Below, piece by piece: positions 40,836 through 56,117 of a DNA stretch of 64,000 bases (positions are counted from its first letter, which is position 1; each line of letters opens with the position of its first letter). The translations under genes and the position numbers were made by a program. The notes beneath the pieces were generated by a model. That model was not told the origin of the DNA, made no database searches, and saw only the letters and a list, made by a program, of their open reading frames with translations. The stretch covers positions 124,992,001 to 125,056,000 of the forward strand of contig OX597816.1 in assembly GCA_951406725.2 (NCBI GenBank), in the 5' to 3' direction. This DNA is from Octopus vulgaris. Taxonomy: Eukaryota.

Positions 40836-40840
40836 AAACC

Positions 40841-40958
40841 TGTTATGTCGCACGTTCGGATGATCTCTCTGAACTCAACTCCTCGACGTCTAGACTTCTC
40901 CCTCTATATCTACGTATTGTGCTAGCCTACTTCATCGTCTGGGGACGTCCACACAATA
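40841..40958 (-). repeat. 3' LTR (118 bp)
   Basis: Matches 45378-45414 plus 47307-47370. Adjacent polypurine tract AAAAATGGGAGG (minus strand, 40959-40970). Confidence 0.92.
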
Positions 40959-41352: not shown

Positions 41353-42193
41353 TCACCTGTGTTTAAAAAATATCGTTTTTCTTCCCGAATTTTCTATTTT
41401 CTGTTTCCTAGTCGGCAACCATTTGTCAAACATAAAATATTTTTTTCTAGAAAACGTCAAATCTGCGGGTGACCTACCCGACTCTTCATTTGGATTTGGT
41501 GTTATTTTATACACCTGCAAAAACTTTGTCATATTTGTATCTTCAAGGATTTCCCGTCTGGTCTTCCTTAAGGCTCTCTTGAATGTGTCGACGAATCTTT
41601 CCGCAAACCCATTTGATCTTGGATGGTATGGCGGAGTTAACACATGCTTCATCTGAACCGATTTACAGAATCTTTCGAAAACCTTCGCCGTCAATTGTGT
41701 AACATTATCCGTCACGATCGTATCTGGGACTCCATAACGAGCGAACAGTTCTTCCAAGAAGTCAATAGTCACACTTGTGGTTGGCCTTGAACATTTACAC
41801 ACTTCAGGCCATTTGGAATAGCTATCCACCACAATGATATAATGAGAGCCATTTATTGTTCCTGCGAAATCCACATGTAGTCTAGACCATGCCGAATCCG
41901 TTTGTTGGCCACGACTGAATCTGCACTGAGGACGCCTCTACTGCCATAGCGCATCCTCTACACTGTTTTACCAGTCTCTCAATGTGCTTGTCCATATGTG
42001 GCCAATAAACGTAACTTCTCATAAGGCTCTTCATCCGGACAATCTCCGGATGTCCTACATGAAAGTCCTTTAATACTCTGTTTTGCAGTGCTTCAGGTAT
42101 TACCACTTGTGCATATAATAATACCTCATCACATACTGAATAGTGCTTTGAACCTGCGTCCCGCTCATTTATATCTTTTTTGTTACTCAACAT
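41353..42193 (-). pseudogene. Gypsy integrase (zinc-binding and catalytic core)
   Basis: HVGHP..RMKSLMRSYVYWP..CRGC; DFAG..VDSYSKWPEV..VTDN..HPRSNGFAERFV. Confidence 0.93.
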
Positions 42194-42203
42194 TTTAAAA
42201 ATC

Positions 42204-43600
42204 TTATTTATTATTTCCTGATTTCAATTTAATTTCTTCCAGTGTCACCCGCAAATCACGTACTACATTGCACAAAATGTTCTTCAGTTCCATTTCTAGT
42301 TTGAACGATGCAATCACCGTGTCTTCAAAAGGTTCCACATATTTTGGAATTAGCCTAGACAAACTTTCTGCGTGTCCCATTTTCATTGATGGCAAAACTC
42401 CATCTGGAAATCGTATTTCAACAGAGTAGTCCCCAGCGCTGTAAACGGTTTGCTGAGTGCGTGGGGATACCCCTTTTTCGAGCCAAAAATAGACAATAAC
42501 TGTCGGTGATCCGTATGCAGTATAAACTTCCTCCCATATAAGAATTTATGGAATTATTTTACTGCGAAGATTAATGATTAACGCCTCTTTTTCAGTCTGG
42601 CTGTAATTTCTTTCAGCTGGGTACAGAACTCTCGATGCATGTGCAATAGCTTTGATTTTACCATCAGTAAATGTATACAATATCACAGCTCATATACTAT
42701 ATTCACTAGCATCCGATGCCACAATTATTTTCAGATTTGGTTCGAAATGAGTTAATGATTACTCTGATGTTAACCGCTTTTTTTAATTCCTCGATTGATT
42801 TCTGACATTCGTTTGTCCAGCTCCATTTCGAGTCCTTCTTTAGCAACTTATTCAACGGAGCTCTTATCTCATACATTTTAGGCATGTACAACTGGTAATA
42901 ACTTACCAAACCTAAAAATGCTTGTAATGTTGTTTTGTAAGTGGGAGCAAGCATTTTTTTTATCGCGTCGATCCTAGAAGGGTCCGGTTTTCGTCCGTTT
43001 TCATCGATCACCTGTCCTAAGTACTTTATTTTTGTCAAGAAAAATTCACATTTATCCTCCCTTACTTTAAACCCGTAATCCCATATTCGTTTGAAAACCT
43101 CTTCCATATGTTCAATATGTTGGTCCCTTGATTCACTTTTGATCAATATGTCATCCAAGTATATAACAGCGAACTCACAATCTGCTAGCATAATATCCAT
43201 CACTTGCTGAAATATTGCTGGTGTGACCTTTACCCCAAATGGCAGTCTTTTGAAAGGGTACATACCTTTATGAGTATTGATTGTTAATACTTTAGCACAT
43301 TCTTCATCTACCAGTAATTGGAGGTAGGCCTCTGACAAATCCAGCTTGGAAAAAATGTTCCCACCATTGCACTTAGCAAATATTTCTTCTAGGTTTGGAA
43401 GCTGATGATTGTAATTTTTTTAAACAATCATTAAGACCAGTTGAGAAGTCCGCACATACTCTTACCTCGTTGTTCTTTTTTATATATACCGTAGGAGCCG
43501 CCCACTCAGAGTAGTCTACTTTTTCAATTACTTCCATGTCTTCCAATCTTTTTAATTCCTTCTCAACTTGATTTCACGCCGCAAAAGGTTCATTCCTTTA
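42204..43600 (-). pseudogene. Gypsy reverse transcriptase and RNase H
   Basis: RVCADFSTGLND, RLPFGVK, YLDDILI, YLGQVI, FLGL, DAS, AERNYSQTEKEA, TDHRQL, NRLQRWG, across frameshifts. Confidence 0.93.
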
Positions 43601-44340
43601 CGGTTTGAACATCGGCACCGCATTTTCTTTCAACTCAAACTTTACTTTAATTTTTTTACACGTACCGAGCTCTTTCGAAAAAATATCTTGGTACATCTTT
43701 TTAAATTTTAATTTCATTTTTTCCGATGCTTTCTCTGACACGGACTGTGACGCATTCACCTTGTTATATAATGTATTCAGTGATAGATCCCACAGGCCGA
43801 ACCCTTCCATTAAATCTGTCCCGAACAGATTCATTGTATTCTTAGATACATTAGTTTACATTTCCGCGTCCTGTTTTTAATTTTTTTTTCTGGTGAAATT
43901 TCGCCCAAGAATTGAATTCATTCTCCTGAAACAGCGTGGGCTATCCTAGTCGTTTATTTATACAACGGCCTGCCTATCTTACTCCATGTTGCCGTATTTA
44001 TTATCGATACGTCTGAACCGGTATCTAATTGCATTTTCGTCTGAAACCCATTTATTTCTTTTTTCTTTACTACCCACAAGGGGCTACATACAGCGGGGAC
44101 AAACAAGGACAGACAAACGGATTAAGTCGATTATATCTACCCCAGTGCGTAATTGGTACTTATTTAATCAAACCCGAAAGGATGAAAGGCAAAGTCGACC
44201 TCGGCGGAATTTGAACTCAGAACGTAGCGGCCGACGAAATACTGATAAGCATTTCGCCCGACGTGCTAACGATTCTGCTGGCTCGTCGCCTTTTATTTCT
44301 ACCAACACAAATTTTCGGTTTTGTCTGGTATAATTTACTT
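43600..44340 (-). pseudogene. Gypsy aspartic protease interrupted by a SINE
   Basis: Removing the SINE and one TSD gives RKFVLVEINGFQTKMQLDTGSDVSIINTATWSKIGRP; NLFGTDLM downstream. Confidence 0.9.
44060..44291 (-). mobile_element. SINE family B inserted in the Gypsy protease
   Basis: 9-bp TSD TTTATTTCT at 44051-44059 and 44292-44300. Minus-strand B box GAGTTCAAATTCC and core GCCTTTCATCCTTTCGGG. Confidence 0.93.
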
Positions 44341-45236
44341 TTGTTGAGTAGACTTCCTTCTGTTTTAGCATTTTCTTTGACCAGCATTTCGTCTGTATAT
44401 GTCCAATTTTACCACACTTAAAACAGGTTTTATCTTTAAGAGAGTAATCTTTCTTCAAATGTCGATCATAGCACCGTTTTGAATTTAAATTTTTTTCCTT
44501 CTTTCTGTACTTTCTTTACACATTTGTACATTATTATTCTTGTCTTCTATCTTTCTTGTATCATCTCGAATGTTTATTATTTGTTGACATTCCTCAGCCA
44601 CATTCTACAAAGTAAGTTTCACATCTTAATTCAACTTTGATAATATTCTTTTTCTAATTTTCGCGTCTTCCGTTGCCACTAGCGCATTAACGAATATTAG
44701 GTACTTGAACATATCTGGCGTTAATTCTTTCAGTTTAAACCTTTTCCCAAGCCTTATTAAACATACCGGCATATGCTACAAAATCATTGGACTCGTTTTT
44801 CTTTAAATCTAAACATTCCCATCGAATGTTAAACTGCGAACTTTTCTCGCTAAAAATATTAGTCAAAATATTTATCGTTTCACCAAACCACAATTTCGCG
44901 GGCTTTCTCGGCAAAATAAAGTTACAAAATCGTTCGTGTTCCGAAGTAGCAAGCTTTCGCAAAAGGAGCCTTAACTTCCTTTCACTAGACCATCCCTTGC
45001 ATTCCTCTCGGAATATGTATTCGTATCGTCTGTAGTATGCAGCAAAAGTAGCTCCTTAATCCGAATTGTATTGAAATTCTTCGATTGAATTTGCAACACC
45101 ATCTGTTGAAAATTATTCTGTCGTATATCTCGACTGCAGTAACAATTCTGTTAACTTCTGTAGTTGCTGCTGTTGCTGCTGTAGTTGTTGCTGTTGATGA
45201 TCTTGATTTAGTTACTGCTTTCAGTAACTCTTCCAT
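44340..45236 (-). pseudogene. Gypsy gag with CCHC zinc knuckle
   Basis: ATG at 45236, Gln-rich N-terminus, TFAAYYRRYEYIF..LLLRKL..EHERFCNFILP, CFKCGKIGHIQTKC. Confidence 0.88.
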
Positions 45237-45253
45237 TTCGATACTATTCGAGA

Positions 45254-45383
45254 CCTCGTCGCCACTGTTATATCGCAATACTACACAGTGGCTGTGTGAG
45301 CTACGCAATCCTCGTCACCACTGTTATATCACAATACTACACAGTGGCTGTGTGAGCTACGCAATCCTCGTCGCCACTGTTAT
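45254..45383 (-). promoter_or_regulatory. Primer-binding site (tRNA-Ser(GCT)-like) in a 56-bp tandem repeat, three PBS copies
   Basis: Minus-strand TGGCGACGAGG at 45254-45264 and 45366-45376, and TGGTGACGAGG at 45310-45320. Each follows ATAACA plus one nucleotide. Confidence 0.88.
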
Positions 45384-45414
45384 GACGCACGTTCGGATGA
45401 CCTCTCTCAACTCA
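45378..45414 (-). repeat. 5' LTR, PBS-proximal part
   Basis: tgttatgacgcacgttcggatgacctctctcaactca matches 40841-40877. Confidence 0.9.
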
Positions 45415-47297
45415 GATTTTTTATTTTGGCACTCGGCCACGAACACAGAGGGTACACTACAAGGACACACACAACACCACAGTGGGGACAATAAACATAA
45501 AACGAATGAGTATGAATATCATATAATAATGAAAGATGAATGGTTGCATGGGCCCCACTCCTCATACAGTACCATTTGAACCTTTATACACTCAGTCTTG
45601 TCACTCTATCTGTTGATCTTTTTTTCCTCCCTTAATTATCGTTTTTTTCCTGAAACATTTTTTCCTTTTTTTTTTTCCTCTTTTTCCCCCCTTTTAACGC
45701 CTCATATACGGCTCCAGCTCCAACAGATCGATTACCGGTGGCAGCTCATTGAACTCCACCAACACGCCGACTGTGTCAATTCTGTTCCCGCACATGTCTC
45801 TAAGGTTCTTATAGGTTTCCCTATCGACCACAATGGCCTTCACACTCTCTGGATACACGTCATTGGGCAGCTTTGCCCTTATGATATGCTTGAACTTTAC
45901 GATTTTTTCTACACCTCCTTTGTTCTTAGAATATGTCACAAAATTCCATTAGTTCTTACCTCCTCTCGGTCTTCTCCTTTCTTCCTTTACTACCTTTCCT
46001 GCCAAAAGTTCCTCTATACTTTTCCCTGAGACTGGTACCTTCTCTTTCTCTGTCTCCACTGTAAACAGCTTCTCCATCTCATCCTCTTGTAGTTGAGTTC
46101 CTGTCTTCCGTCAATTCAACTGTCAGCTTCATACTTGCTTCCTCCTTCTCTAACTCATTGTCACACACCTTAATTATTTGTTCCCTTTCCTTTACCGTCT
46201 CACTTTTATAATCTTTCTTTCTCGTTACCTCTTTCTTTTCCATCTCTTCTTTCTTCTTTTTTTTTTTTGGTTAGTCGGCGGCGGGGTTACCCTACCGCTC
46301 CTTCTTTTTCTTTCCTCCAGCGTGAATTCTTCTTCAGCTGCTTTCTCATTATTCTTGACTGCCACTGCCTGTTCGACATTTTCTCCAATCTCTCTCTGTT
46401 CTTTCCGCGAGCATCTCACCTTCATGTGTCCCTTTTCGCCGCATTTGAAACACCCAGGCGGTCTTCCCTCCACCTTCATTCTTAGTGACGGTAACACTAT
46501 TGCCTCTGCTATTTTGTTCAAGTCTTCCACTGTTGCCTGTATTGTTAGCTCCAACCCATCCCCCAGTAATCCAACTTGTTAGTTCTGGTGGCCTTCAATA
46601 TCCTGGCCTCATCTTCCATGTTATATATAATGGCTGTCATTAACCATGCCTCCTCCAGCTCTGGGGCACCTGCCCCACCCGAACTCTCGCCACACGTTTG
46701 CCGCAATAAGATGGCAGAAGAAAACATTCTTCTGAGCGGATTGCTTTCGTAACGTGTCTTAACGCTTCCTCTTCCGATGTGAAACGCACGTCCACAGCGG
46801 CATACTTTCTGCCTCTTGCTCTGAAGATTATCACATTTTCGTGCTTTCCAGCACCTTCTCGATTTCCTCCACAGTTGCTGACTCAATTTTTCTAGTAGCG
46901 ACCTTCATTGTCTTGTATGTTACTGTCTTCTTCATGACGCTATTCATAAGTTCTTCAGGTGGCGTCAACATTATCTTCTCGCCTTCCTTTTTCAGCAGCT
47001 TCTCGCTAGCTTTCATCTTCCTGGGCTCGACCTTTATTTCAAAAGTCTCCAATGTTTCTTTCTCTGCTTGTCTTCCATTTGCGGCTGCATAGCTGTGGCC
47101 GCCCTCTGGCGCCTTCTCCATTTTCCCGAATGGGAAAAACCAACTTCAACAAAAATTAACGATATAATAACCGATATTAACAACAACAATAATCAACAAT
47201 AAATTCACGTTCTACTCACAAATATAACTCAGCTTCAATAGCTCAACTTCAACAGCTCAACTTCAAAAACAACACCTGTCAACTACAAAATCCGATA
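45415..47297 (-). mobile_element. ORF1-only non-LTR-type retroelement (HAL1/Tx1-like) inserted in the LTR
   Basis: 9-bp TSD CTCAACTCA (45406-45414, 47298-47306); ~175-bp 5' UTR; one frameshifted ORF; ~280-bp 3' UTR ending AATAAAAAATC; no RT or EN. Confidence 0.8.
45694..47121 (-). pseudogene. ORF1/gag-like nucleic-acid-binding protein (RRM-like segments plus CX2CX4HX4C)
   Basis: Consecutive ORFs in shifting frames: MEKAPEGGHSYAAA..., VDVRFTSEEEA, VRVGQVP, GRPPGCFKCGEKGHMKVRC, a K/E-rich linker, and a C-terminal segment ending LEPYMRR*. Confidence 0.75.
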
Positions 47298-47306
47298 CTC
47301 AACTCA

Positions 47307-47370
47307 ACTCCTCGGCGTCTAGACTTCTCCCTCTATATCTACTTCATAGTCTGGGGGAGTCCACACAACA
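47307..47370 (-). repeat. 5' LTR, distal part
   Basis: Matches 40878-40958 except for a 17-bp indel; followed by TSD AAACC. Confidence 0.9.
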
Positions 47371-47375
47371 AAACC

Positions 47376-54925: not shown

Positions 54926-56117
54926 GGCGTATTTATAGCGTAAGCACATGCTAAACCCCCTCATAACTTTTTAAAAATTTTTACGGTTTTACAAAATATT
55001 CTCGATTCTGTCTGCTGCATAATGGAATTAATAGGATTATGAAAAAAAAAAAAATAATAATACCCCCCATACCCCCACAAATTTCAAAACATTCCACTGG
55101 TTTTATATATATTTTGTTTAATTTGTAGTTTTAAAATACCGACAGTCCTAAACTACCATTCGTTTCTCATTATAATTTCCAAATAATATTTTAAATACTT
55201 CAAAATCAAAATTGCGTACATATGTGTGCCGATGGTTTTCTGCGTGCTAGTTAAAAATTAAAACAGTAGTTAAAAATTAAAGACATAGATTTGAGGGGAT
55301 CTCTTATTATGATTGACTTTTATTCTATTATTCTAACATCTTCAGAAACGTATATATATACATGTATAAATGCATGCAGAAACATATATAAATATATACA
55401 CACACTCATACATTTTTACAGAATTTTATATACATTTTCGTATATATATATAAATATTTCGACATATCTACACAATTGTGTCCCAAAGATTTGCTTCTTC
55501 ATAACCTTGAGAAAATTAATATTTCTTTATGAAATTTTCTAAAAATATGTTTCAGATCGTGTAGATTCCGATTAAATTGGGATTCATTGTCCCTAAAGGA
55601 GATTTAGAAAATTCATACCATTAGGCTTTGTTGTATATATATCTGTGTGTGTATATATCTATATCTATCTAATGTATGAGTGTGTGTATATATTTATCTA
55701 TTTCTGTATGCATTTATACATGTAAATGTATAATTTTCAGAAGCTATTAGAATAATGGAATAAAAGTCAGTTATAGTAAGGGACCTCTCAAAAATCTATT
55801 TCTTTAATTTTTAACTGCTGTTCTTAGTACACATGAAAATATCGGCATACGTATTTACGTAATTTTAATTTTGAAGTATTTAAAAAATTATTTGGAAATT
55901 ATAAAGTGAAATGGATGGCAGATTTGGAGTGTCCGTATTTAAAAACCACGAATTAAAAAGAAATAGAAATACAGTGGGAAGTTTTGGAGTTGGTGGTGGG
56001 GTTTAAATTTTTTTTCATTATCGTATTAATTTCCAAAATTGAAAAAATATTGTAAAAGTCCGTAAAAATAAAAACGTTATGAAAGGTTTTAGTACGTGCT
56101 TACATCATAATCCCGCC
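54926..56117. mobile_element. Non-autonomous fold-back DNA transposon with ~450-490-bp TIRs and 8-bp TSD (Merlin- or MULE-like)
   Basis: 54926-~55413 is the approximate reverse complement of ~55672-56117. Termini GGCG...CGCC. TSD AAAGGAAC at 54918-54925 and 56118-56125. Confidence 0.88.

Follow-up and report, generated by a model that had tools for sequence, protein, structure and literature searches.

An ORF1-only L1/Tx1-group retroelement in a Gypsy LTR of Octopus vulgaris, from a lineage often found behind TATA-like boxes

Results

A retroelement splits the 5' LTR of a Gypsy element

The window, that is the whole 64-kb stretch of Octopus vulgaris DNA analyzed here, carries a Gypsy retrotransposon on the minus strand that is bounded by a 5-bp target site duplication (TSD; AAACC at 40836-40840 and 47371-47375) and retains remnants of gag (zf-CCHC, DUF7083), reverse transcriptase (RT) and integrase in the Gypsy order. 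Its 5' LTR is interrupted by a second element. The features, given in window coordinates, are the following:

40841..40958, minus strand: Gypsy 3' LTR, 118 bp, the reference for the empty site
41353..45055, minus strand: Gypsy gag-pol, decayed (DUF7083, zf-CCHC, RVT_1, rve)
45364..45376, minus strand: primer-binding-site-like motif behind the 5' LTR, recognized from its sequence, a putative match to tRNA-Ser
45378..47370, minus strand: Gypsy 5' LTR, interrupted by the element at the predicted transcription start
45406..45414, minus strand: TSD of the element, 3' copy, 9 bp
45415..47297, minus strand: ORF1-only non-LTR retroelement, decayed copy
45415..45465, minus strand: 3' tail of the element, with a TGT.CCC motif, a short hairpin (45427-45439) and AATAAA (45420-45425), no poly(A)
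45694..47121, minus strand: ORF1, about 475 codons, disrupted in this copy
45697..45948, minus strand: C-terminal domain, predicted ferredoxin-like alpha/beta fold, conserved in the ORF1-only clade
46408..46455, minus strand: CCHC zinc knuckle (PF00098)
46460..46930, minus strand: two predicted RRM domains, bounds approximate, from the model of the relative L177
47122..47297, minus strand: 5' UTR, 176 nt, with TTGAAGTTGAG-type repeats common to copies in unrelated targets
47298..47306, minus strand: TSD of the element, 5' copy, 9 bp
47331..47337, minus strand: TATAGAG, the TATA-like box of the Gypsy LTR, 31 nt (counted from its first T) upstream of the TSD start

An initial annotation had described a 1,883-bp insert at 45415-47297 flanked by an exact 9-bp TSD, and this was confirmed: the two copies of CTCAACTCA that enclose the insert, at 45406-45414 and 47298-47306, are the only ones in the window. 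According to the same annotation, removal of the insert restores colinearity with the 3' LTR. Both flanks bear this out, as the left flank (45377-45414) is identical to 40840-40877 at 35 of 38 positions and the right flank (47298-47342) to 40869-40913 at 43 of 45. The element ends in AATAAAAAATC as reported, and it lacks an endonuclease and an RT, ORF2 queries having matched nothing in the window. The ORF was said to be single and frameshifted; an ORF is indeed present from 47121 to 45694 on the minus strand, interrupted by several frameshifts and stops rather than by one. This copy is about 4.7% diverged from the family majority at conserved sites and bears no marks of RNA editing (9 A>G and 8 T>C changes). 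The primer-binding-site region of this Gypsy family (45254-45376 in the window) is duplicated in 56-bp units, and likewise at the loci L061, L062 and L090. Elsewhere in the window, nested inverted repeats at 55112-55962, with arms of 138 and 104 nt that are 81-83% complementary, possibly form a MITE-like element.

The element belongs to a multi-copy family

When its own genome was searched with the DNA of the element, the best 40 of 624 candidates were scored and gave 56 matches, with at least 12 further loci colinear over 1.7-1.85 kb at 76-85% identity. The element is therefore a multi-copy family and not a one-off. A second search used the last 226 nt of the element (best 40 of 544 candidates scored). 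In 40 loci taken at about 10 kb, ORF1 was never separated from the tail by an ORF2, and 5' truncation accompanied by a clear TSD was common (16 nt at L061, 15 nt at L062 and 18 nt at L064). Loci with the 3' end and without the full 5' part included 14 with TSD-like matches of 8-23 nt. TSDs and 5' truncations are the marks of target-primed reverse transcription, and the family has thus propagated as a unit in the manner of HAL1-type elements.

Database relatives of the window ORF were only two proteins, both of Octopus bimaculoides and 64-65% identical; one of them (P0003) has the same C-terminal domain as the ORF1-only ORF of O. vulgaris. A 1,877-nt contig from another organism aligns to 45539-47246 of the window with no ORF2-sized insert, so the ORF1-only unit occurs there too.

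A clade without ORF2 has kept its ORF1 under selection

An ORF2 was found between ORF1 and tail in none of 70 inspected loci, drawn from the best 150 matches to P0001 (40-100% identity) that were obtained with the window family's own ORF1 as query. A diverged ORF1 adjoining one copy was used as a second query, and the best 150 of 12,400 candidates were scored. Most of these matches were the ORF1 of 5.2-kb elements with a 1,130-aa ORF2 (APE, RT and zf-RVT), and distant ORF1 relatives (about 30-37% identity) mostly had an APE-RT-zf-RVT ORF2 downstream. The best solved relative of the autonomous ORF2 is human L1 ORF2p (E 4e-67). With APE, RT, a C-terminal zinc finger and L1 ORF2p as nearest relative, the autonomous partners fall in the L1/Tx1 group, and intact copies with a 1,132-aa ORF2 are present. 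Database matches examined for the placement within this group were mostly unnamed and included no named Tx1 reference. The window ORF1 is homologous to the ORF1 of these autonomous LINEs of the same genome; homology of this kind combined with the absence of an ORF2 is what characterizes the HAL1-type class. The autonomous elements lie in head-to-tail arrays of mixed subfamilies with ORF1-only units interleaved.

A tree of 63 of 115 ORF1 rows was built, near-identical rows being thinned and two long rows as well as unclassified rows left out. It contains a 37-row clade without ORF2 (support 100/98) that includes the window family, and a quick tree of all 115 rows agrees with it. Among the autonomous families, some recent deletions and at least one further lineage that lacks ORF2 were also seen. 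Recent independent ORF2 deletions were observed at L140 (1430-3366), at L103 (G000 C1:105.51 Mb), where ORF2 residues 7-31 are fused to residues 1067-1132, and at L237; at L140 the last 63 ORF2 residues alone are kept. The cases of L103 and L140 indicate that ORF1-only forms keep arising. Members of the superfamily often form back-to-back pairs of opposite orientation no more than about 1 kb apart (L142, L146/L029, L148/L030 and L231), as though a single promoter region were exploited in both directions.

The dN/dS comparison proposed in the initial annotation revealed purifying selection on ORF1, in ORFs chosen for being nearly intact. In 12 clade members, pN/pS was 0.14 for shared changes and 0.43 for private ones (Fisher p 4e-14). 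Pairwise dN/dS at dS > 0.5 was 0.14-0.15 in the ORF1-only clade and 0.09-0.11 for autonomous ORF1s. ORF1 has thus been under purifying selection after the loss of ORF2, another property of the HAL1-type class. The ORF2-less clade and this selection together indicate that the ORF1-only state is old and that the protein was needed.

These data bear on the idea that the family derives from a one-off ORF2 deletion, or from hitch-hiking, in which a single insertion was amplified along with its host LTR element or through segmental duplication. Some copies are indeed not independent, since L006, L008, L010-L012, L029 and L030 have common flanks, as do the copies of the C30/C31 cluster, and ORF2 has been deleted recently in autonomous families (L103, L140). 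However, TSDs, truncation points and targets differ between copies, the ORF2-less clade is deep and under purifying selection, relatives exist in O. bimaculoides, and the insertion statistics given below survive clustering by target. For the family as a whole this explanation is refuted by the independent TSDs, and we regard it as very improbable in any form. As a separate observation, more than 10 near-identical copies (L013-L027; C30 18.6-20.9 Mb and C31) represent one and the same insertion into the window's LTR family, cut at element position ~1638; they were probably multiplied by segmental duplication.

ORF1 encodes a predicted RNA-binding protein with a type I layout

The RRM-like segments of the initial annotation were recovered as two RRM domains in an AlphaFold model of the relative L177 (pLDDT 80.5), followed by the knuckle, a charged linker of low confidence and a folded C-terminal domain. 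The best Foldseek matches of this model are tandem-RRM proteins, e.g. IMP3 RRM12 (E 3e-5). The CX2CX4HX4C knuckle is present and scores above the Pfam cut-off (21.7 bits); zf-CCHC is the only Pfam match of ORF1. A search of protein representatives returned 2,246 unnamed matches. The type I layout, RRM plus CCHC, has been linked to Tx1-like elements (passages of PMC5203782), and the two modelled RRMs and the knuckle of the octopus protein conform to it.

Modelled alone, the C-terminal domain is a generic ferredoxin-like alpha/beta domain (pLDDT 82). Foldseek returned no match for it at E<=0.001 and the ESM Atlas no usable match, and the best VIA-align result (Z 6.0, rmsd 3.4, 78 aligned) was among generic ferredoxin-like folds. 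In alignment A1 (columns 560-754), the domain of the ORF1-only elements aligns poorly with that of autonomous ORF1s, and it may have been replaced or have diverged fast. Complex prediction for the N-terminal half and the C-terminal domain of ORF1 with a TBP core (98% identical to the genome's own exon), run on single sequences, gave a score of 0.00, which speaks neither for nor against binding.

ORF1-only and autonomous elements have a common 3' tail

A partner of the L1/Tx1 group with the same 3' end had been proposed, and autonomous candidates with a homologous tail were found. The window tail is homologous to theirs, and ORF1-only and autonomous tails alike consist of TGT..TGTCCC, a short hairpin and then AATAAA(GAA), with no poly(A). 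Copies end in AATAAAGAA plus 0-3 nt, directly at the TSD. A hairpin of at least three Watson-Crick pairs precedes AATAAA in 57 of 66 ORF1-only tails (mean of shuffled tails 29.8) and in 17 of 20 autonomous tails (mean 6.8); in distinct tails the counts exceed all 200 shuffles. The stem sequences themselves vary (GGC/GCC, CCC/GGG, ATCC/GGAT among others). A 3' end common with an autonomous partner is a further property of the HAL1-type class, seen here as a homologous motif and hairpin in partner families that are candidates. From the sequences, the common tail fits recognition by ORF2p in trans. The poly(A) tail is a feature of HAL1 elements, which are mammalian L1 derivatives, and on this point, as well as in lacking an ORF1 of type II (Transposase_22, with coiled coil, one RRM and CTD), the octopus element is not a HAL1 in the strict sense.

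Insertions often lie about 30 nt behind TATA-like boxes

The initial annotation suggested a preference for (CTCAA)n-like sites. This did not hold, as TTGAG or CTCAA was present within ~12 nt of the junction in just 3 of 23 window-family sites and near the junction in 3 of 56 non-redundant sites. The gctcaacttcaa repeats that had been cited in its favor do lie at 47227-47270, and they lose their value as a target-like sign since copies in unrelated targets carry them; they are thus internal to the element. What the initial annotation inferred otherwise, a non-autonomous ORF1-only HAL1-like family of the L1/Tx1 group in a mollusc, mobilized as a unit, agrees with the results above.

On reading the flanks, we found that a TATA-like box precedes the TSD by ~30 nt in unrelated targets, whether the insert is ORF1-only or autonomous. 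To count these boxes, 102 TSD calls were reduced to 68 by removal of duplicates, array-internal copies, short flanks and distant calls, and a further 60 3'-end loci gave 16 TSDs of which 15 were kept; about one third of the elements with a tail gave no TSD and fall outside the counts. Among the sites counted, L094 has a TSD that is probably misplaced and scores as a hit, and the TSDs of L149, L236, L255 and L260 are doubtful because of their low complexity; L283 was dropped. The motif was the TATA consensus TATAWAWR, and expected numbers were derived from the same flanks. In an offset window of -33 to -27, set after the first flank readings, full-length ORF1-only copies had the motif with at most one mismatch in 19 of 33 cases (2.7 expected) and target clusters had it in 9 of 18 (1.6 expected), against 1 of 33 on the opposite strand downstream, and the position of the motif peaked at -30 (12/54). 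With at most two mismatches at -32 to -29, a cut likewise chosen after seeing the data, it was found at 52 of 83 sites (16.5 expected), 31 of 56 non-redundant sites (10.3), 16 of 29 truncated copies (4.8) and 8 of 9 truncated autonomous copies (1.7). The enrichment was modest in full-length autonomous copies (9/21, 3.9 expected) and weak in truncated copies of the window's own subfamily (5/14, 2.5 expected, p 0.08; non-redundant 4/13, p 0.2). By established promoter geometry, the position 30 nt behind a TATA box is the predicted transcription start site.

The targets comprise at least five short LTR-like families and other repeats that are unrelated to each other. Most LTR calls were made by eye from TG..CA ends, PPT and PBS-like motifs and two from Gypsy-type ORFs; a Pfam search of 52 ORFs in the flanks recognized the host in few cases (L090 by a Gypsy-type gag, L088 by RT/RNase H, L159 and L222 by transposase domains). 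Two target sites have a CCAAT box in addition to the TATA box (L143 and L209). Of 263 distinct tails in the 118-bp LTR family of the window, nine lie just behind the TATA box, all in sense orientation, and two of these nine are probably duplicates of one event. The sequence at the nick is variable apart from weak T/G and AGT biases.

These sites might be explained by an ordinary HAL1-like family that relies on a partner endonuclease with a short preferred sequence, (CTCAA)n or AGT/TGT, which LTRs happen to carry. The junctions show some bias of this kind, since 33 of 56 sites have T at position 0 and 17 of 56 have AGT nearby (5.8 expected), and Tx1 families with sequence-defined targets are known, two of them in LTR retrotransposons (passages of PMC4494074). 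However, besides the rarity of TTGAG/CTCAA in the family sites, the TATA offset is constant although the sequences at the nick differ between the LTR-like families, at least five in number, and the other repeats; within one LTR family, the sites shift with the local sequence and yet hold a distance of 27-31 nt from the TATA box. We therefore consider an ordinary short-sequence preference improbable.

An alternative of slightly better standing, though still unlikely, is a preference for open nucleosome-free promoter DNA, A/T-rich and bent, in which the -30 peak would reflect structure or accessibility rather than a TBP ruler and the element would have its own internal promoter. In its favor, a clear TATA box is absent at 25 of the 56 non-redundant sites, the enrichment is weak in truncated copies of the window family, and array-internal copies are inserted at the 5' ends of other elements. 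It also draws on a failed prediction of promoter capture, namely that 5' leaders should match the target sequences of other loci: they did so in 1 of 29 copies (p<=0.05). The leaders thus do not detectably carry an earlier target sequence, and the element may have an internal promoter. In contrast, accessibility alone hardly accounts for so narrow a peak at -30, or for a sense orientation as strict as that of 9 of 9 LTR-family tails and of the low opposite-strand count given above. On these sequence data, our best reading is that targeting is positional, about 30 nt behind TATA-like boxes and in sense orientation, with a weak sequence bias at the nick.

Other sites were observed as well. An autonomous family of the same ORF1 superfamily (L149, L236) sits in (CT)n microsatellites and not behind TATA boxes; Kibi-type Tx1 elements sit in such microsatellites. 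In a repeat with a TATTTAAA box (L133, L138, L148, L215, L216, L222 and L225; a Mariner-type transposase fragment is nearby at L222), the insertion follows the box at a distance of ~40 nt or more at six sites, and short pieces that vary lie in between. At the position of the window junction (45405-47316), empty copies of the Gypsy LTR are hypervariable, with AACTC/ACTCT-rich pieces of many lengths; this could result from slippage, from footprints of lost insertions or from escape from targeting.

Discussion

We consider it likely that the element is a HAL1-like, ORF1-only derivative of the L1/Tx1 group, probably copied in trans, and that insertions of its lineage often fall ~30 nt behind TATA-like boxes in sense orientation and probably use the captured promoter. 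In such a cycle, the element would be transcribed from the promoter where it is inserted, here that of the Gypsy LTR. ORF1p would be made in cis and the ORF2p of an autonomous relative recruited via the common tail; if the tail is what ORF2p recognizes, the partner need not be a close ORF1 relative. The first nick would fall at the start site held by TBP/TFIID, so that position and not sequence would pick the site, and the new copy would be reverse-transcribed in sense under the target promoter. The AATAAA of the element would end the host transcript early. The start site would be left free for the next copy, and its repeated use would build arrays. More speculatively, and by analogy to the Dictyostelium element TRE5-A.2, ORF1 may have been retained in cis because its product coats the RNA and perhaps also steers it to TBP.

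A bolder proposal is that the TBP-bound promoter serves the lineage as a ruler for insertion exactly at transcription starts, that its ORF1-only offshoots are promoterless and tens of millions of years old, and that they seize and silence the promoters of Gypsy LTRs and other transposons with ORF1p as the targeting device. We put this forward tentatively, as an account that is rather doubtful in its full extent. If true, a metazoan non-LTR retrotransposon would target TATA promoters with near-nucleotide precision independently of the nick sequence, and transposons would prey on the promoters of other transposons. The persistence of ORF1-only LINEs under purifying selection, a standing question for HAL1-type elements, would be explained and made testable, and insertions would mark active germ-line promoters in the octopus. 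The intact autonomous copies are open to testing and might serve as a promoter-targeted insertion tool.

Such targeting is known for Pol III genes (Ty3, TRE5-A); our literature search found none for a LINE at TATA/Pol II starts, nor LINE insertion at TATA+30. It also found no ORF1-only L1/Tx1 elements in cephalopods, and Repbase, Dfam or the supplements of PMC13282606 may already contain the family. That study of O. vulgaris repeats reports 13 recently active L1-Tx1 families, and its main text does not contain the terms 'ORF1', 'target', 'nested' or 'promoter'. What the window locus contributes is a recurrent class of targets, the promoters of Gypsy LTRs, together with the depth of the clade that lacks ORF2.

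LINEs with ORF1 alone form a recognized class, the 'ORF1-present' non-autonomous elements, with HAL1, HeT-A and Ag-Sponge as representatives of the L1, Jockey and CR1 clades (passages of PMC5786205 and PMC5753468). As described there, these elements and the octopus family alike keep ORF1 alone, have a LINE 3' end and TSDs, and appear to be mobilized in trans. The octopus element differs in its type I ORF1 (RRM-RRM-CCHC), which is not of the mammalian Transposase_22 type, in the lack of poly(A), in its invertebrate host and in its positional targeting behind TATA boxes.

Preference for other transposons, including LTR elements, is common to the octopus lineage and to the target-specific Tx1 families treated in passages of PMC4494074: Tx1L in Tx1D, Tx1-Mar in Mariner-N4_AMi and Keno in U2, with Tx1-8_Crp and Tx1-4_AMi having targets in LTR retrotransposons. 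Whereas each of those families is bound to one target sequence, the octopus lineage enters many unrelated sequences at a common promoter position. The passages on these families mention no ORF1-only Tx1 partner; for SINEU, transcription from flanking DNA is proposed in the same paper. Ty3 and Tj1, which target Pol III genes, likewise integrate at or next to the transcription start site, as set by TBP-containing factors in the case of Ty3 (passages of PMC5911963). They are integrase-based LTR retrotransposons at Pol III genes, in contrast to a non-LTR element at predicted TATA starts.

The closest likeness is to TRE5-A of Dictyostelium. TRE5-A.1 and TRE5-A.2 combine, like the octopus elements, an APE-type non-LTR element with an ORF2-less partner that keeps ORF1, insert at a fixed distance from a transcription complex and form tandems at reused targets (passages of PMC5391098 and PMC5911963). 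In the octopus this distance is that from a predicted TBP site, with the TATA peak at -30 in about half of the sites. TRE5-A, which is equipped with a promoter of its own, enters sites 44-54 bp upstream of Pol III tRNA genes and does so in the opposite orientation (same sources). The octopus insertions are neither upstream of tRNA genes nor in opposite orientation: they lie in sense in LTRs and other repeats, at the predicted start ~30 nt behind TATA boxes that include those of Pol II LTR promoters. The ORF1p of TRE5-A binds TBP in vitro, and TRE5-A.2, which has no ORF2 and has kept ORF1, is mobilized in trans with its targeting retained (passages of PMC5391098). By analogy, TRE5-A.2 may serve as the closest working model for the octopus element.
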